Of a stretch of DNA of 24,421 nt, positions 1,522-13,189 are shown piece by piece. The notes beneath the pieces are model-generated. The model was not told the DNA's origin and searched no databases. It saw only the letters and a list, made by a program, of their open reading frames with translations. The translations under genes and the position numbers were made by a program. Numbering within the stretch: position 1 is the first letter of the stretch; each line of letters opens with the position of its first letter. The stretch is taken from IMG/VR virus record IMGVR_UViG_3300025429_000082, positions 1 to 24,421 of that record, one strand, 5' to 3'. The stretch comes from a virus (lineage: Duplodnaviria > Caudoviricetes).

Positions 1522-2911
1522 GGCGCTCAAACTCGCCGAACAGCAAGCGCAGGCCGACGAGGCCGTCAAGCAACTGGCCTTCAGCGACTACCGGACGAAA
1601 GCCCGCCCCCAACAACTGCCCCCCGAAGGCGACTGGCGCATCTGGCTCATCCTCGCGGGCCGTGGCTTCGGCAAGACGTGGACGGGCTCCAAGTGGCTTC
1701 TCGAGAAAGCCCTCCAGCAACCCGAGACCGAGTGGGCAGTCGTTGCCCCGACCTTCGGTGACGTGCGCCGTATCTGCGTCGAGGGCCCGAGTGGCATCAT
1801 CAAGAGCGCACAGCCTGGACAAATCAAGTTCTACAACAAGTCCAACGGCCAGATAACGCTCGCCAACGGCTCGGTAATCCACATGATTTCCGCCGACGAA
1901 CCAGACCGCGCCCGTGGCCTCAATCTGGCCGGAGCGTGGTGCGACGAGTTCGCCGCCTGGCGCTACGAAGAGACCTGGACAGAGGGCCTCGTTCCCGCCC
2001 TTCGTATCGGCAACCCGCAGGTGGTCATCACGACGACCCCGAGGCCGACGCGGTTGATCCGCGAGCTCATCAAGCGCGACGACGGTTCAGTCTCCCTGAC
2101 CCGAGGCTCGACCTTCGACAACGCCGCGAACCTCTCACAAGCCGCCCTCGCTGAACTGCGAGCCCGCTACGAGGGAACGCGCATCGGTCGCCAAGAACTC
2201 TACGGCGAAGTCCTCACCGACATCGCCGGAGCCCTGTGGACGTGGGACAGCATTGACGCGGCCCGCTGGCACCAAGCGCCCGAACTCTCGCGCATCGTCG
2301 TCGCAGTCGACCCCGCCGTCACTTCGGGCGAGGACAGCGACGAAACCGGCATCATCGTGGTCGGCAAAGGCATGGCAGACGGACGTGGCTACGTCCTCGC
2401 CGACCGTTCCTGCCGAGACACGCCGTTTGGCTGGGCGAAGCGAGTGGTGCAGACCTACCACGAGTTCAACGCCGACCGCGTGGTGGCCGAAAAGAACCAG
2501 GGTGGCGACTTCATCGAGCAGACGCTACGAAGCGTGGATGCGACCCTGCCGTTCAAGGGCGTCATCGCCAGGCAAGGCAAGCGCCTCCGCGCCGAGCCAG
2601 TCGCCGCGCTCTACGAGCAAGGCCGTATCAGCCACGTCGGCAACCTCGACGAACTCGAGAACCAGATGACCGAGTGGGTGCCCGACAGCGGTTCCTCACC
2701 CGACCGCATCGACGCCCTCGTGCACGGACTGGTCGAACTCGGCCTCGCTACCGGCGCGTCCGCGGATCGCTTCTTTGCGAGCATCTCAAAACCCTGCGAG
2801 CGTTGCGGTATGCCGATGGCAACCGACGCGCAGAACTGCTCGTCCTGCGGTCACCTAGTCCCGCAGACAGTCCTCGCAGACGCAACCATTTCGCTCCCGT
2901 ACTTCCCGTAA
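1475..2911 (+). CDS. terL: Terminase large subunit with a C-terminal zinc-ribbon extension
   Basis: Walker A LAGRGFGKT, Walker B AWCDEFA, motif III ITTTP, RNase H-like nuclease VVAVDPA...SDETGI...SPDRIDA. C-terminal CERC...CSSC. Confidence 0.96.
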   Translation: MTTPAERRLAELRRLRALKLAEQQAQADEAVKQLAFSDYRTKARPQQLPPEGDWRIWLILAGRGFGKTWTGSKWLLEKALQQPETEWAVVAPTFGDVRRICVEGPSGIIKSAQPGQIKFYNKSNGQITLANGSVIHMISADEPDRARGLNLAGAWCDEFAAWRYEETWTEGLVPALRIGNPQVVITTTPRPTRLIRELIKRDDGSVSLTRGSTFDNAANLSQAALAELRARYEGTRIGRQELYGEVLTDIAGALWTWDSIDAARWHQAPELSRIVVAVDPAVTSGEDSDETGIIVVGKGMADGRGYVLADRSCRDTPFGWAKRVVQTYHEFNADRVVAEKNQGGDFIEQTLRSVDATLPFKGVIARQGKRLRAEPVAALYEQGRISHVGNLDELENQMTEWVPDSGSSPDRIDALVHGLVELGLATGASADRFFASISKPCERCGMPMATDAQNCSSCGHLVPQTVLADATISLPYFP

Positions 2912-3010
2912 GAAGCGAGAGAACGCCAAGTCGACGAGCTCACACTCGGCGCACTTCCACACCAGGCGACTTCCCGTCTCCCACCTGTGGTCAGTCCATT
3001 TTTCACACAC
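2855..3010 (-). CDS. Possible antisense 51-aa Cys/His-rich protein MCEKWTDHRWETGSRLVWKCAECELVDLAFSRFLREVRERNGCVCEDCLRD
   Basis: Occupies most of the terL-portal gap on the - strand. Metal-ligand pattern C..H..CxxC..CxCxxC. GTG start with no well-spaced SD. Confidence 0.35.
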   Translation of the reverse strand: MCEKWTDHRWETGSRLVWKCAECELVDLAFSRFLREVRERNGCVCEDCLRD

Positions 3011-3031
3011 GCCTCATCTTAGGAGCCTCCG

Positions 3032-5281
3032 TTGGCACGCTTTGGTCGCAAGAACAAGACAGCGGAACTCGCGAAGGCCGTAGCGGCAGAACTCGCGAAG
3101 GGTCAGGTCGGCCCCTACTCGGACGCCGCCTACTCGCAGAGCGCCGCGGCTATTCCATACGCGAACATGACCGGCCAAATCCAGGTCGCGGGCGAAGTGG
3201 TCGCCATGCCCCGACCAGGTGGCGCGTTCGGTGCCATCCTCGGCCCGAGCGCACCGCTGGTTCCCGCAGCCCTTGACGTAGTTGACCCCGACACTGGTCG
3301 GGCGATGCCGCGCAAGTACGAGTACCAAGTTGCGCAGAACCTCAACATCACCCAGACGAGCGTTCCCTTCGCCATCCTGCGCCAACTCGCCGAACAATGC
3401 GACATTATCCACCGTTGCATCGAGATCCGCGTCAGCGAAATCGTCAAGCAGGACTGGTCGTTCGCGGTCGCCCCGCAGGCCATCGCCGAAATCATGGAGA
3501 CCGAGAACTGCTCGCACGCGAAGGCCGCCAAGATTGGCCGCGAGAAGTTCGGCGAGGAAATCGTCCGCCTCACGCAGTTCTGGGAGAACCCCTACGTCGC
3601 CAGCGACCGTTCCTTCGTCGAGTGGATGACCGAGGCGCTGTGGCAGGTGTTCGTCTTTGACCAACTCTGCGTCTACCCCCGCTACAGCCTCGGCAAGAAG
3701 TTGCTCGGCTTCGACATTATCGACTCGCCGACCATCAAAATCCTGCTGGACAACCGAGGCGACATTCCTCACCCGCCAGCGCCCGCGTTCCAACAAATCC
3801 TTCACGGCTTCCCACGCGGCGAGTTCACCGCCAGCCCCGACGCGGACGGCGAGTTCTTCTCGGGCGCTGGGCGTGCCGACCAGTTCCTCACGGATCAACT
3901 GTTCGTCAGCGTCCGCAACCGTCGCAGTTGGAGCGTCTACGGCTACAGCCCCGTGGAGCAGTCCATTCCAAGCGCGACGGAGTACCTCGAGCGCCAGCGT
4001 TGGCGCCGGAGCGAGTACCAGGACGGCTCCACGCCGAAGACCTGGATGCGCACGAACTCAATGGAACTCGACGCGCTGAAGTTGGCCGCCTACGAGCGCA
4101 TCCTCAACGACAAGTTGACCGGCTCGACCGCCGAGCGCCACCGCATCAAGGTTCTGCCGGACGGCTTTGAACCGATTGCCATGCCCCAGGTGGACTCGTA
4201 CTTCAAGCCGGAGTACGACGAGTTCATCATCAAGCGCATCGCTTCGTGCTTCGGTGTCTCACCGGCCGCCCTCGGCGTCATGCCCCGTTCCGGCCTCGGT
4301 GGCTCGGGCGAGCACAAGGGCCAGCAGGAGAGCGCCGAAATCGTCTCACAGCGCCCGATGGAGAACTACGTCGTCGAGTTCGTCAACGCCCTCTGCCGTC
4401 GCTTCCTCGACGCGGACAAGAACGTCACCTTCGTCCTGAACGACGAGCAGGCTGGCGAGAGCGAGCAGACCCGCCTCAACGCCTACAAGGTCGCCATCGA
4501 GTCCGGCCAGATGACCCTCAACGACGTTCGCGGTGAACTCGGCCTCGCCCTCTACGACGACCCGAGCGCCGACGAGCCGTTCATCGCCACCCCGCAAGGC
4601 CCCGTCTACTTCCGTGGCACGCTTGAAACGACCACGTCGGGGGAAACCACCGGACAAGTTGGAGAGCCCCATGAACAAGTTGCACAAGGCACACAAGGCA
4701 GCGCACAAGGCCCACAAAGCAGCGAAGAAGGGCCACAAGGCGAAGGTCAAGCACCAGTCAGTCAGGGCGAAAACGCCGAAGATCGTGTGAAGGCCGAACT
4801 GGCCGCGTTCAACAAGTTCGTCAAGGCTCGCACCAAGACCGGCGCGTGGCGCGACTTTCACTTCTCGGCCATCAACGAGGACGACGCCTACGCACTGAAT
4901 CAAGACGCCCAAGCAATCATCAAGGGCGAGACCTACACCCCTCCGGCTGGCGTGCAAGAAGCCGCCAAGCGTGCCCTCGAGTGGATCGCCGACGGCAAGG
5001 CAGGTTCCGGCTTCACCGACGTAGGGCGCAAGCGTGCCTCTGACCTCGCTCGTGGCGCTGGCGTCTCAATGGCGACCGTCCGACGCATGAAGGCCTACTT
5101 CGACCGCCACCAGAGCGACAAGGACGCCACGGGCTTCACCTCGGGCGAAGAGGGCTTCCCCTCACCTGGTCGTGTCGCGTGGGACGCGTGGGGCGGTGAC
5201 GCTGGCTACTCGTGGGTCAAGCGCCTCGTCGGAAGCGAGAAGGCCGCGGAGCCTGACCGCCCTTTTTACTCGGGGCTCTAG
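3032..5281 (+). CDS. Portal protein with a long C-terminal extension (acidic linker plus extra domains)
   Basis: Follows TerL. AGGAG SD (3021-3025) before TTG. Portal motifs VYGYSPVE, IASCFGVSPAALG and GQMTLNDVRGELGL. The extra C-terminal domain spans about 4925-5230. Confidence 0.92.
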   Translation: MARFGRKNKTAELAKAVAAELAKGQVGPYSDAAYSQSAAAIPYANMTGQIQVAGEVVAMPRPGGAFGAILGPSAPLVPAALDVVDPDTGRAMPRKYEYQVAQNLNITQTSVPFAILRQLAEQCDIIHRCIEIRVSEIVKQDWSFAVAPQAIAEIMETENCSHAKAAKIGREKFGEEIVRLTQFWENPYVASDRSFVEWMTEALWQVFVFDQLCVYPRYSLGKKLLGFDIIDSPTIKILLDNRGDIPHPPAPAFQQILHGFPRGEFTASPDADGEFFSGAGRADQFLTDQLFVSVRNRRSWSVYGYSPVEQSIPSATEYLERQRWRRSEYQDGSTPKTWMRTNSMELDALKLAAYERILNDKLTGSTAERHRIKVLPDGFEPIAMPQVDSYFKPEYDEFIIKRIASCFGVSPAALGVMPRSGLGGSGEHKGQQESAEIVSQRPMENYVVEFVNALCRRFLDADKNVTFVLNDEQAGESEQTRLNAYKVAIESGQMTLNDVRGELGLALYDDPSADEPFIATPQGPVYFRGTLETTTSGETTGQVGEPHEQVAQGTQGSAQGPQSSEEGPQGEGQAPVSQGENAEDRVKAELAAFNKFVKARTKTGAWRDFHFSAINEDDAYALNQDAQAIIKGETYTPPAGVQEAAKRALEWIADGKAGSGFTDVGRKRASDLARGAGVSMATVRRMKAYFDRHQSDKDATGFTSGEEGFPSPGRVAWDAWGGDAGYSWVKRLVGSEKAAEPDRPFYSGL
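4671..4790 (+). CDS. Overprinted (+1 frame) 39-aa Lys/His/Ala-rich basic peptide MNKLHKAHKAAHKAHKAAKKGHKAKVKHQSVRAKTPKIV
   Basis: Own SD context GGAGAGCCCC-ATG (4661-4673). Codons are mostly G/C-ending in this frame, while the portal frame turns to A-ending codons here. 12 K, 6 H, 1 R, no D/E. Confidence 0.6.
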   Translation: MNKLHKAHKAAHKAHKAAKKGHKAKVKHQSVRAKTPKIV

Positions 5282-5299
5282 CGAAGGCTGGGGCCGCCG
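5260..5299 (+). promoter_or_regulatory. Putative programmed -1 ribosomal frameshift signal (portal to MuF)
   Basis: X XXY YYZ heptamer C CCT TTT (5260-5266) in portal phase, then hairpin GGCTCTAGC-GAAG-GCTGGGGCC (5274-5295, extendable to 5271-5299). The -1 frame opens right after TGA at 5254-5256. Confidence 0.75.
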
Positions 5300-6093
5300 A
5301 CCTCCCGCACCACGGCAAGAAAGTGACGATTGAGGACTACTACCGTCCGGTCATCGCCGAAGCCCTGCGTCAGCTCGTCACCAACCCCGACGAGATTGCC
5401 AAGCACGCCGTCGAAGTCGCGAGCCACTACAACAAGGCCGCCGACCCCGACAAGAAGGCCATCGCACGCAACGCGGTAGACCACACGGCCAAGACCGACC
5501 CAGAGGCCCTCGTAAAGGCTCTGAAGCGCCTCTACGGCGACGCTGGCATGACCGGCGCTAAGACCGCGCTCGACGACATGGGTGGCGCTGCCAAACTCGG
5601 CTCGGGCATGAGTGGCCTCGTCGGTGGCGTGGACTGGGCGAACTGGAAGCCTGGCAACCCCGAAGCGGCCGAGAAGGTCGCGGGCAAGCGCCTCGGCGAA
5701 ATCTGGTCGAACGCGGGCTACACCGTGGACGGCATCACCAAGACCACCACGAATCGCATCGGCACCATTATCGCCGACGGACTGACCGCTGGCTCGACGT
5801 GGCAGGAAATCTCGGCGGGCATCAACGACCTGCTGAACAACCCAGGTCGCGCCGACATCATCGCCATCACCGAAACCAACCGCGCCTTCATCGGCGCCTC
5901 GGTGGACGAGTACCAGAACTCCGGCATGGACGGCTTCACTTGGCTGGCCTACGACGGAGCGTGCCCCGAGTGCGAAGAGCAAGCGGGCGACCACTCCTTC
6001 GGTGACGACTACCCACCGGCGCACCCCGCCTGCCGTTGCGCCGTCATCGCGATTATTCCCGACGAAACCCTACCCCTTCCCTCGGAGGACTAA
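5260..6093 (+). CDS. MuF/SPP1 gp7-like minor head morphogenesis protein (ORF-caller start 5323; frame open from 5257, probably reached by -1 frameshift)
   Basis: RADIIAITETNRA, W...D..CPEC and the hallmark PPAHPACRC motif. Lies between portal and protease. GTG5323 lacks a good SD. Confidence 0.88.
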   Translation, partial: PFLLGALAKAGAADLPHHGKKVTIEDYYRPVIAEALRQLVTNPDEIAKHAVEVASHYNKAADPDKKAIARNAVDHTAKTDPEALVKALKRLYGDAGMTGAKTALDDMGGAAKLGSGMSGLVGGVDWANWKPGNPEAAEKVAGKRLGEIWSNAGYTVDGITKTTTNRIGTIIADGLTAGSTWQEISAGINDLLNNPGRADIIAITETNRAFIGASVDEYQNSGMDGFTWLAYDGACPECEEQAGDHSFGDDYPPAHPACRCAVIAIIPDETLPLPSED

Positions 6094-7757
6094 TGACTAA
6101 CGAAATCAAGCACGTCTACTTCGGCAACCTGACCGTCAAGCGCGGTGAGGACGGCTACTTGCGCGTCAAGGGTCTCGCGACCGACGACACGCTCGACCTG
6201 GACGAGCAGATCTGCGACCCCGAGTGGCTGAAGACCGCCATGCCGAAGTGGATGGAAATCGGGAACATCCGCGAGATGCACGGCGCGAAGGCCGTTGGCA
6301 AGGCCGTCGAGATGGAGCAGTCCGGCAACGGGTTCATCGTCGAGGCCAAGATTGTCGACAAGGACGCCGCGCTGAAAGTCGAAGAGGACATCTACACCGG
6401 CTTCTCGGTTGGTATCAAGAACGCCCGAGTGGTGAAGGACGCAGCTGCCCCAGGTGGTCGCATCGTGTCCGGCCAAATCGTCGAGGTATCCCTCGTCGAC
6501 CGACCCGCTAACCCCAGCGCGGTCATCGAAATCGCTAAGTCAGTCGACGGCGAATTAGTGAAAGGTTCAGCCGTGTCTGACGAAATCAAGTTCGCGGAGG
6601 GCGCCACGCTCAACGCCGAAGCCGAAATGATTGAAACCCCCTTGCAGAACGCCGAAGCGGCCGCCCGCGACAAGCAGATGCAACCCTGCAACGCCTGCGG
6701 TGGCACCGGCTTCAAGGGCAACGTCGCCGAAGAGGACATGACGAGCGTCCCCTGTGAGAACTGCCACGGCACGGGTGTCCAGCCCGAGCACTCGAACGAG
6801 GACATCATTCAGTCCAGCCCGACTCAGCCCGCCAACGCGGACGACGCGAACCACGACGTGAAGGGCGCGGACGCCGAGGTCGAGAAGAAGGACTACTCCG
6901 ACAAGGAGCGCCAGGCTCTCGCCGACGCCGGTCAGGCTCTGCCCGACGGCTCGTTCCCCGTCAAGACCGTCGCCGACCTCAAGAACGCAATCCAGTCCTA
7001 CGGTCGCGCGAAGGACAAGGACGCCGCCAAGAAGCACATCATCGCTCGCGCGAAGGCTCTCGGCAAGGAAGACCTCATCCCCGACAACTGGAAGGGCGCG
7101 GACGCCGACCTGACGAAGGCCGACGACCTCATGCACGACCCCGCCGACCTCGTGGCCGTGCGTGCGTCACTCATCGCGCTCATCAAGGCCGAACTCGACG
7201 AGATGCTCGCGGGCACCGAGAACGAAGTCGCGGACGTGACGCAGTTGCTCTGCACCCTCTCGATGTTCCTTGACTGGTGGACGAGCGAGGCTTCGGAAAA
7301 CGAAACCGACGCCCCCTTCACCGGCTGGGACATGGACAACAAAGAACCGTCAGGAGACGACATGGCTTACATTGGACTCGGCGTGAGCGCCGACCTCATC
7401 AAGGCTGCCGCCGCGGACACCGCGAGCGACACCGACAAGACCGCACTCCGCGACGAGATCCGCAAGGCTCTCGGCGTGGACGAGGAAATCGCCACCTACA
7501 AGGCGGCTCTGACCAAGTACGAGGAGGACATCACCGTCCTCAAGGGTGCTTTGGATGAGATCCGTGAGATGGCGGCACCTGGTGGGCCGGCCCTGCGCCA
7601 GACCACCGTTCAGGCTACGAAGTCAGCAAAGGCCGAGGCACTCCGCATCGAGGCCGAAGGCTTGCGCTACAAGGCCGCACAAATCACCGAACCGAACCTG
7701 CGCAACGAGTACCTCGCGACTGCTAGCCGTCTCGAGCGTCAAGCCGACCAGGCCTAA
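6093..7757 (+). CDS. HK97-family prohead maturation protease fused to a DnaJ-like Zn finger, a DUF6582-like domain and a C-terminal scaffold (554 aa; start ATG6093)
   Basis: GGAGGA SD and TAATG overlap at 6091-6095. Protease motifs IREMH, TGFSVG and EVSLVDRPANP. CNACGGTG/CENCHGTG, then ALPDGSFPV...HIIARAKALG...LIPDNW, then a helical C-terminus. Confidence 0.9.
   Translation: MTNEIKHVYFGNLTVKRGEDGYLRVKGLATDDTLDLDEQICDPEWLKTAMPKWMEIGNIREMHGAKAVGKAVEMEQSGNGFIVEAKIVDKDAALKVEEDIYTGFSVGIKNARVVKDAAAPGGRIVSGQIVEVSLVDRPANPSAVIEIAKSVDGELVKGSAVSDEIKFAEGATLNAEAEMIETPLQNAEAAARDKQMQPCNACGGTGFKGNVAEEDMTSVPCENCHGTGVQPEHSNEDIIQSSPTQPANADDANHDVKGADAEVEKKDYSDKERQALADAGQALPDGSFPVKTVADLKNAIQSYGRAKDKDAAKKHIIARAKALGKEDLIPDNWKGADADLTKADDLMHDPADLVAVRASLIALIKAELDEMLAGTENEVADVTQLLCTLSMFLDWWTSEASENETDAPFTGWDMDNKEPSGDDMAYIGLGVSADLIKAAAADTASDTDKTALRDEIRKALGVDEEIATYKAALTKYEEDITVLKGALDEIREMAAPGGPALRQTTVQATKSAKAEALRIEAEGLRYKAAQITEPNLRNEYLATASRLERQADQA
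6860..7108 (+). repeat. Perfect 18-bp direct repeat GAAGGGCGCGGACGCCGA (6860-6877 and 7091-7108)
   Basis: Read directly. The copies are 231 nt apart (in frame) and bracket the DUF6582-like domain. Confidence 0.9.
7362..7757 (+). CDS. Probable nested in-frame scaffolding protein (131 aa) from an internal start
   Basis: AGGAGA-CGAC-ATG GCT TAC at 7352-7370 closely resembles the capsid start AGGAGA-AAACA-ATG GCT TAC. The product is helical and Ala/Glu/Lys-rich. Same arrangement as lambda C/Nu3 and Mu I/Z. Confidence 0.6.
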   Translation: MAYIGLGVSADLIKAAAADTASDTDKTALRDEIRKALGVDEEIATYKAALTKYEEDITVLKGALDEIREMAAPGGPALRQTTVQATKSAKAEALRIEAEGLRYKAAQITEPNLRNEYLATASRLERQADQA

Positions 7758-12590: not shown

Positions 12591-12995
12591 ATGCCAGCCA
12601 TCGAACTACCGAACGGCGCCTCGGCCATCATCCGCACCAAAGCGGAGGTGTCCGAGCGCACCACTCGCAACATCTCACGCGCCTACATGAAGGCCGCGGG
12701 TACTGCCGCCAAACTCGCCACCAGCGGGTTCGACGACACCAAGCCCGAGACGTGGGGCGTGTTCGCCGACCTGTCTGACGAAGACCGCGCCAACCTGGAC
12801 GGCTATCAGGCGGCTCTCATCGTTGGCATGGTGTCCTCGTGGTCGCTCGGTGACCTCCCGACTGACGACACGGCTCTCGATCTACCGAAGGCCGTGTTCG
12901 ACGCCCTAGCTGAAGCCTGCGCCGCGGAGTTTGCCAAGACCGAGGAGTTCGGCCCCGACGGGGTGAACGACCCAAAAGCGCCTACCGCCGACTGA
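12591..12995 (+). CDS. Tail assembly chaperone (gpG-like)
   Basis: Between tube and tape measure, AAGGGG SD, ends D-P-K-A at the slippery site C CCA AAA. Confidence 0.82.
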   Translation: MPAIELPNGASAIIRTKAEVSERTTRNISRAYMKAAGTAAKLATSGFDDTKPETWGVFADLSDEDRANLDGYQAALIVGMVSSWSLGDLPTDDTALDLPKAVFDALAEACAAEFAKTEEFGPDGVNDPKAPTAD

Positions 12996-13189
12996 ACGCA
13001 CTCCGCGCTCAACTCAAAGGCCACACGGCCGAGGTTGACCGTGAACTCATGGACTACTGGCGCGAGTACCTATTCCGCAAGACCTTCGGCGGTACGCACG
13101 AGGACTTCCTCGACCAGCCCACGATGACTACCGAGTGGTTGATTGCTATTCACAACACCGTGGAGGCCATCCGTGGCGAACAGCCCTGA
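12971..13189 (+). CDS. -1 frameshift extension of the tail chaperone (gpGT-like, fusion about 199 aa)
   Basis: Heptamer C CCA AAA (12971-12977). The -1 frame reads PKSAYRRLNALRAQLKGHTAEVDRELMDYWREYLFRKTFGGTHEDFLDQPTMTTEWLIAIHNTVEAIRGEQP* and is absent from the ORF track. Confidence 0.8.
   Translation, partial: PKSAYRRLNALRAQLKGHTAEVDRELMDYWREYLFRKTFGGTHEDFLDQPTMTTEWLIAIHNTVEAIRGEQP

Follow-up and report, generated by a model that had tools for sequence, protein, structure and literature searches.

A basic open reading frame nested in the portal gene

Few genes of tailed phages are as conserved, or as widely used as markers, as the portal gene, which annotation counts as a single gene. The stretch of DNA analyzed here (the window; 24,421 nucleotides, positions 1 to 24,421 of the IMG/VR record IMGVR_UViG_3300025429_000082) raises the question of whether its portal gene harbors a second one. 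The window covers the structural half of the genome of a tailed phage (approximately 63% G+C), and contains terminase, portal, MuF, protease, capsid, and tail genes. An initial annotation proposed that a short open reading frame (ORF) in the +1 frame of the portal gene is a nested gene with its own start, preceded by a Shine-Dalgarno (SD) sequence. The elements concerned are the following:

3032..5281, + strand: portal gene, host of the nested ORF (749 amino acids, TTG start)
4637..4789, + strand: variable acidic Q/E/G/S linker in the portal frame (approximately residues 536–586), which houses the nested gene
4661..4665, + strand: SD-like GGAGA of the nested gene, within portal codons G544-E545 (from sequence; anti-SD duplex of -6.4 kcal/mol)
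4671..4790, + strand: nested +1-frame gene for a 39-amino-acid K/A/H-rich peptide of net charge (K+R-D-E) +13, proposed from start signals, conservation, and wobble shift
4790..4930, + strand: conserved post-linker portal segment ELAAFxKFVK...WRDFxF (from alignments), with the nested stop immediately upstream

The host gene was identified as a portal by matches to Pfam PF04860 (residues 292–504, E = 6.6e-17) and to the portal family PHROG 2662 (E = 9e-42). No invariant column was found between L531 and E589 in alignment A1; the linker was placed from composition and alignment, and is predicted from composition to be disordered. As an overprinted gene, the nested ORF lies wholly within the portal gene in the +1 frame, with its own start (ATG at 4671) and stop (TGA at 4788–4790), and GGAGAGCCCC (4661–4670) stands directly upstream of the ATG. 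The 39 residues (4343 Da) include 12 lysines, six histidines, and one arginine, that is, 19 basic residues, and no aspartate or glutamate; the sequence, coordinates, translation, and residue counts given in the initial annotation were all exact. Pairing of the nested start with the anti-SD sequence is on par with that of terL (-6.4 kcal/mol) and of the portal itself (-6.5 kcal/mol). The SD context had been likened to those of the tail tube gene (AAGGAGAGCCC-GTG) and ORF11258 (AAGGAGACCCC-ATG), and this likeness holds, the pairing of these two being stronger (-8.2 versus -6.4 kcal/mol). A switch in codon endings had also been described, and was recovered: of the 39 portal codons over this stretch, 20 end in A and 13 in G or C, 33 of the +1 codons ending in G or C, and the fraction of A-ending portal codons is 0.05 upstream of the linker versus 20/39 over the nested ORF. 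By the rule applied, this was the sole SD-led short basic ORF on the + strand of the window. Nothing notable was found in RNA structure at the nested start (z = -0.52).

The initial annotation had cautioned that linker codons give basic residues in the +1 frame by default. A recoding null, in which the portal amino acids were held and the codons redrawn (4000 draws), proved this caution right: total basicity (mean of 17.0 K+R+H versus 19 observed, p = 0.17), openness of the frame (88% of draws), and lack of acidic residues (85% of draws) were all near the default. Lysine (12 versus 3.4) and histidine (6 versus 0.6) exceeded it, neither the start (P = 0.07) nor the stop (P = 0.17) was a default outcome, and start, open frame, stop, and basicity coincided in 13 of the 4000 draws. 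The basicity of the +1 frame alone is thus largely a by-product of the Q/E/G-rich linker. A single sequence is insufficient to decide whether the gene is real, and comparative evidence is decisive.

Conservation of the nested ORF among relatives

A set of 239 sequences was assembled, of which 159 matched the pre-linker region; after removal of 11 without the anchor motif and eight that were too short, the remaining 140 yielded 73 distinct linkers, with the window and its own record (L159) counted once. In 66 of the 73 there was a +1 start 30–34 codons past the anchor, a basic ORF of 27–56 amino acids, and a stop just upstream of the next conserved portal segment. The seven linkers without a basic ORF (L095, L168, L150, L235, L120, L121, and L137) were sorted by eye. 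Further analyses used 33 representative homologues with mutual identity below 80%. Their nested starts are ATG (22), GTG (10), or TTG (1), with a median anti-SD pairing of -6.2 kcal/mol versus -1.7 kcal/mol for 692 other out-of-frame starts in portal bodies; pairing of -5 kcal/mol or better was found in 24 of the 33 versus 14.9% of those 692 ATG/GTG codons, figures somewhat inflated by the choice of each nested start as the best-pairing of up to ten codons. SD, start, basic ORF, and stop are kept in the +1 frame of homologous portals, some SDs being weak. The finding that would have spoken against a gene, namely relatives with stops or without ATG/SD in this frame but with the linker kept, was looked at, and the outcome was in favor of the gene.

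A +1-frame stop lies within six codons upstream of the nested start in 12 of the 33 representatives, and for this reason we infer independent initiation: translation of the nested gene would begin at a ribosome-binding site of its own within the head-gene mRNA, and not result from frameshifting out of the portal. Downstream, the portal stop follows the nested stop in all 71 linkers (of 73) with a portal stop in the locus. A later scan found 13 more distinct basic linkers with similar C-termini; since its rule demanded a charge of at least +10, the charge of these linkers is no independent test. A family member nearly identical to a nested one (P0001) was also called de novo by a gene caller on a short contig.

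Purifying selection on the +1 frame

Over the last 12 codons of the ORF, nucleotide entropy at the three +1 codon positions was 1.23, 1.15, and 1.51, peaking at the +1 wobble position, whereas in four portal-only blocks the peak was at the portal wobble position instead. This shift was seen in nine of the 12 final codons (p = 0.027), where amino-acid identity was 0.40 in the +1 frame and 0.21 in the portal frame. Suppressed portal-synonymous variation, proposed in the initial annotation as a check, was then evident from ten close pairs, one per cluster: substitutions at portal codon positions 1/2/3 numbered 29/7/10 inside the ORF and 18/3/61 outside it (p = 1e-7), so that third positions took 10 of the changes inside versus 61 outside. 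In the same pairs, the ratio of synonymous to non-synonymous codons was 24:15 in the +1 frame and 12:29 in the portal frame (p = 0.007). The strain in run X8 gave counts of 7/3/3 inside and 2/1/12 outside (p = 0.010; 28 of the 31 differences listed), and both reading frames are preserved by its 3-nucleotide deletion and by a 12-nucleotide deletion in X6. Across genomes, G+C at third codon positions (GC3) of the +1 frame correlated with the GC3 of the portal body (rho = 0.50, p = 0.003), and that of the portal-frame linker did not (rho = 0.23, p = 0.2).

These results indicate that, across the clade, purifying selection acts on the +1 frame and not on the portal linker. Because substitutions, wobble, and GC3 all follow the +1 frame, the portal linker for the most part passively reflects the nested gene. 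The proposal of a nested, separately started gene has strong support: the basic ORF recurs in relatives together with its SD, start, and stop, and substitutions track its frame. We consider it highly probable, judging from sequence comparison, that the nested gene is real and translated.

Conserved features of the peptide

The C-terminus of the family carries a motif of approximately the form V[KR]AKRR[KR]Lx-stop, found in 23 of the 33 representatives versus a mean of 0.2 in recoded linkers. Counting from the end, alanine occupies position -7 in 27 of the 33, arginine positions -5 and -4 in 25 and 26, and leucine or isoleucine position -2 in 30; the end has two to four basic residues and then an aliphatic one at -2 (L in 25, I in five, V in one). 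Net charge ranged from +11 to +18 (mean +13.9) over lengths of 27–56 amino acids, with a standard deviation of 1.3 versus null values of 2.7 (recoding) and 3.8 (binomial). Its slope against length was 0.13, where constant density would give 0.38. Pooled over 1180 residues, the composition was 26% K, 16% A, and 13% R, and the hydrophobic fraction was 0.18. An amphipathic helix was considered for the basic peptides and rejected, the hydrophobic moment not exceeding that of shuffles at 100, 120, or 170 degrees.

In subfamilies of the nested peptide, the N-terminus is extended by distinct sequences that contain aromatic residues (W..GP.V and YYTY.TKK; L013, L149, L233, L291, L319, and L327 versus L015, L153, and L158), which may be a second binding element. 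A very histidine-rich member (L340; 44 amino acids, net charge +13) was found on a 14.7-kb contig of a metagenome-assembled genome labeled Micrarchaeota, probably a mis-binned phage contig.

The pH- or metal-sensitive switch that the initial annotation had suggested from the histidine content does not extend to the family: histidines range from none to six, nine of the 33 peptides having none and just seven having four or more. Its description as histone H1/protamine-like stands for composition only. There are 19 [ST]PK motifs in 16 of the 33 members versus 2.2 in shuffles and 13.3 in recoded linkers, an excess over recoding that is not significant (p = 0.057), and no family match was obtained. 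Searches of Pfam and NCBIfam with 32 members gave no histone-like, H1, ribosomal, or ArfA family at E up to 1, and PHROGs and PDB profile searches gave nothing significant and no homology to phiX174 J or T4 internal proteins. The best PDB profile matches were all to ribosomal eS30 (E = 0.06 or worse) and are probably compositional. No usable match for the peptide came from ESM Atlas.

Among 6696 word-sharing candidates, no stand-alone homologue reached E = 0.01 or better, in a search that is weak for short low-complexity peptides. Among 1.84 billion representative proteins there were two matches, P0001 and P0002; the latter clusters with a protein that has portal-like residues upstream, and so looks nested as well. 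No stand-alone copy was found in four records without the nested ORF (12–84% complete, no positive control, L235 outside the set), no comparable ORF in four cultured phages with distant portals, and no RNA run carrying the sequence among the 24 runs listed. The portions of the literature covered on nested genes, basic head peptides, and portal frameshifts in tailed phages, with subscription papers mostly outside their scope, mention no nested portal gene and no portal-MuF frameshift. Both the nesting of phage genes and small basic proteins of the head have precedents. Gene callers and tryptic proteomics alike would overlook such a peptide, and standard annotation misses genes of this kind.

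Origin of the nested ORF and unrelated ORFs in sister lineages

A FastTree phylogeny of 77 portal cores (midpoint root; six low-scoring representatives and all incomplete loci excluded) confined the basic ORF to one group of 41 rows, 34 with it and seven without, with a support of 93, under the star threshold of the tool. In an IQ-TREE analysis of 38 rows (L006, L012, and L235 skipped), four negative rows require three separate changes, which we read as losses of the nested ORF. Since several lineages, at least three, would have lost it, the comparison suggests an accessory gene. A linker followed by a similar conserved segment is present in all 20 outgroup rows (mainly prophages of actinobacteria), and the ORF is absent from them by the same rule.

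Overprinting of an older linker is favored over engulfment of a free gene, because the outgroups have the linker without the ORF, the portal never ends before the peptide (71 linkers), and no stand-alone copy was found. The pre-existing linker would have been overprinted with its Q/E/G codons giving K/R/A in the +1 frame by default.

In the sister group (16 rows), 10 rows have SD-led, leucine-rich helical +1 ORFs in the same place and frame, unrelated to the basic peptides. Two ORF types were seen in this slot of related portals:

L049:2127–2438, L050:3314–3625, L239:3309–3626, L048:5505–5792, L241:4200–4352, L243:4074–4355, L272, and L275: SD-led +1 ORF in the portal linker, with a conserved amphipathic stretch near D[AT]SQ
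L246:4185–4502, L247:4197–4481, L251:4143–4463, and L260: second leucine-rich +1 ORF type in the same slot, with the motif LM[ND]LLDL

Both showed a +1 wobble excess in small samples (eight and four sequences), and identity in the LM[ND]LLDL type was 0.63 in the +1 frame versus 0.45 in the portal frame (four sequences). A relationship of a sister-clade ORF to the N-terminus of the tape measure protein was rejected (probability 1.2%). At one locus, L246, an in-frame stop breaks the conserved post-linker portal segment at portal codon 119 past the anchor. With outgroups lacking the ORF, different ORFs in two sister clades, and repeated losses, the clade is a natural experiment in de novo gene birth.

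Proposed function of the nested peptide

Location in the head operon and a narrow net charge make a nucleic-acid-binding head peptide the best available reading of the +1 ORF, to which we give an even chance. The peptide would be co-expressed late with terminase, portal, MuF, protease, and capsid, would be unstructured, lysine-rich, and of about +14, and would bind nucleic acid in heads that are being assembled or are already filled. A two-part design can be envisaged, in which a polycation rich in K/A and variable in length is followed by a fixed C-terminal motif docking on a head protein or DNA site, with a mode of action akin to that of phiX174 J or T4 internal proteins and an accessory role, several lineages having lost the gene. 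Charge screening would be local or partial. The 30.8-kb record of a relative, rated 84% complete, points to a genome of approximately 37 kb, or 74,000 phosphates, and by our arithmetic 5% screening would take some 280 copies; bulk neutralization of the DNA is unlikely, because a +13 peptide demands hundreds of copies even for partial neutralization. Should the peptide be present in virions, it would have a bearing on charge handling in motor-packaged double-stranded DNA heads, a question that the narrow charge range makes directly testable by synthetic peptides.

A number of observations weigh against this assignment. The head-gene position may mark a permissive linker and not a site of action, given the unrelated helical ORFs of the sister clade. 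Motor-packaging tailed phages are without typical positive capsid arms, and ions and polyamines may balance the charge, as excerpts of PMC7096446 have it, so that the need for a basic head peptide is not established. The charge statistics are partly circular, as seven non-basic linkers were removed by eye, and the lineages are related and not independent. SD pairing is weak in nine of the 33 representatives, and seven of the 41 clade rows are without the ORF. The window peptide itself is divergent, ending in VRAKTPKIV without the RR of the family. In the closest pair (the window versus L001) both of the two changes are silent in the portal and non-synonymous in the +1 frame, and a change at 4699 in the X8 strain apparently puts one glutamate into the peptide.

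Four other explanations were weighed. The peptide could be a cytoplasmic one whose target is ribosomes or the nucleic acid of host or phage, acting as a nucleoid-type or concatemer-coating polycation or as a small ribosome-binding peptide tuning late translation. Its size and charge suit small rRNA-binding proteins, the eS30 matches point the same way at E = 0.06 or worse, and conservation of charge suits any nucleic-acid partner; this is nevertheless rather unlikely, as the Pfam and NCBIfam searches with 32 members gave no ribosomal, ArfA, or histone-like match at E up to 1, and the peptide is uncoupled from the predicted portal-MuF frameshift (see below). That the C-terminus is a protease-recognition signal, making the peptide short-lived or a decoy or inhibitor of the host Clp protease, would account for the resemblance of the family ending to the C-motif-2 ClpX degron of MuA, which ends in RRKKAI (available portion of PMC12723719); most members share this likeness, by C-terminal sequence only. 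We regard this role as quite improbable: it leaves the narrow charge of the whole peptide unexplained, the window peptide has no RR, and the motif has been described for E. coli ClpX, whereas the host here is probably actinobacterial.

A membrane-active cationic peptide, such as a lysis helper or an antimicrobial-like molecule, would fit a length of 27–56 amino acids and a charge of about +14, but with so low a hydrophobic fraction, a moment no higher than that of shuffles, and approximately 14 kb between the ORF and the putative lysis genes, it has very little probability. There might finally be no separate gene but a by-product of the Q/E/G-rich linker, or only a frameshifted portal tail. 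Basicity, openness, and the missing acidic residues are indeed largely default given the portal residues, and one database protein (P0003) fuses portal-like residues to a family peptide, although P0003 looks scrambled over much of its length, as from an indel-ridden assembly. Wobble shift, synonymous excess, conservation of start, SD, and stop, and the C-terminal motif all track the +1 frame, none of the 20 outgroup rows with similar linkers has such an ORF by the same rule, and upstream +1 stops lie within six codons of the start in 12 of 33 representatives, which leaves this explanation very improbable.

Comparison with known systems

Rz1 within Rz of lambda and E within D of phiX174 are out-of-frame nested phage genes. 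The portal ORF resembles them as a small gene that has its own start and is fully enclosed, out of frame, by another essential gene; it differs in that the host is a portal linker, the product a polycation and not a lysis protein, selection on the nested frame overrides that on the host frame, and sister lineages hold unrelated ORFs in the same slot. Excerpts of bioRxiv 10.64898/2026.07.25.740675 describe overlapping genes in phiX174, and J as a basic DNA-binding protein within the capsid. Like J, which is short and docks by its C-terminus, the nested product would be a short, basic, flexible peptide, proposed to bind DNA inside the head and carrying a conserved end that may serve in docking. 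Unlike J, which is encoded by a free-standing gene of a single-stranded DNA phage, the nested peptide belongs to a tailed double-stranded DNA phage with a terminase motor, several lineages have lost it, and there is no sequence match.

The T4 internal proteins IPI-III are small basic proteins of the head that are non-essential, show poor conservation, and bind DNA when salt is low (as given in part of PMC9026906). The nested peptide is small and basic too, and its ORF is absent from some lineages. In contrast to the T4 proteins, which are of 8–20 kDa, come from separate genes, and have a cleaved N-terminal targeting part, it is of 4.3 kDa, its conserved part is C-terminal, and no homology was found. 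With the C-terminal domain of histone H1 (comparison drawn from a section of PMC6069787) it shares a K/A-rich, low-complexity sequence, with S/TPK motifs in 16 of the 33 members that are not in significant excess over recoding; unlike H1, it has no globular domain. Arginine dominance was not found either: the family is lysine-rich (26% K versus 13% R), whereas protamines are arginine-rich.

A predicted frameshift joining portal to MuF

The end of the portal gene contains two further elements:

5260..5266, + strand: slippery heptamer C_CCT_TTT, in phase, for a predicted -1 frameshift from portal to MuF
5257..6093, + strand: MuF (SPP1 gp7-like) frame, -1 relative to the portal (PF04233, E = 2e-7)

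The first GTG of MuF (5323) has no good SD (-1.7 kcal/mol), and the -1 frame is open from 5257. A hairpin is predicted after the heptamer (5270–5300), with z = -1.41, which alone is not significant. Among the 73 linker groups, MuF lies in the -1 frame past the portal stop in 15, is fused in frame to the portal in 56, and is cut short in two. In all 15 split loci the -1 frame is open and a heptamer lies in phase (CCCTTTT in 10, CCCAAAA in three, and an A-run ending in AAAAAAG in two). The heptamer at 5260–5266 is predicted to be a programmed -1 frameshift site joining portal to MuF, and the product of slippage would have approximately 1020 amino acids, near the length of several fused relatives. 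Tail assembly chaperones G/GT use a programmed -1 frameshift of the X XXY YYZ type (accessible part of PMC7911831). The present site is like theirs in having an in-phase heptamer shortly upstream of the stop and an open -1 frame beyond, and unlike theirs in joining portal to MuF and in being replaced by a hard in-frame fusion in relatives. A link between peptide and frameshift was considered and rejected: the slippery site is present but the peptide missing in L150 and L235, and the loci with the peptide are mostly in-frame fusions.

One locus probably gives three products: portal, portal-MuF, and a hidden peptide. A broader reading is possible, and we put it forward tentatively, as somewhat doubtful. 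The portal linker would be a reusable gene-birth slot, filled at least twice by unrelated selected microproteins, one of them a J-like, charge-calibrated (approximately +14) DNA-binding peptide packed in the heads of motor-packaging tailed phages, from a locus that also gives portal and portal-MuF by frameshift. If this is true, motor-packaging tailed phages have a J-like component thought absent from them.

Phage, host, and other features of the window

All seven runs with at least half of the sampled words were freshwater metagenomes. The nearest isolated phages have a portal identity of just 20–27%. The named bacterial genomes with the closest portals are mostly Actinomycetota prophages, and therefore an actinobacterial host is likely. 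No Rfam match was found within the window, and no sigma70-like promoter in 2900–6200. The portal gene includes one further element:

4934..5236, + strand: optional domain at the C-terminus of the portal ORF, function unassigned (phrog_2859, residues 635–735, E = 6e-41)

Some relatives carry this domain of approximately 100 amino acids at the C-terminus of the portal and others lack it; it is also found in many other phage loci, and many loci match it alone. The head protease ORF (window 6093–7757) has a zinc-finger-like CxxC..CxxC insert, with weak DnaJ and anti-TRAP matches under the cut-off, and also a long acidic, scaffold-like tail. At window 12591–13135, a gap separates the gene after the tail tube gene from the next SD-led gene, at the position where the tail-chaperone frameshift usually lies.

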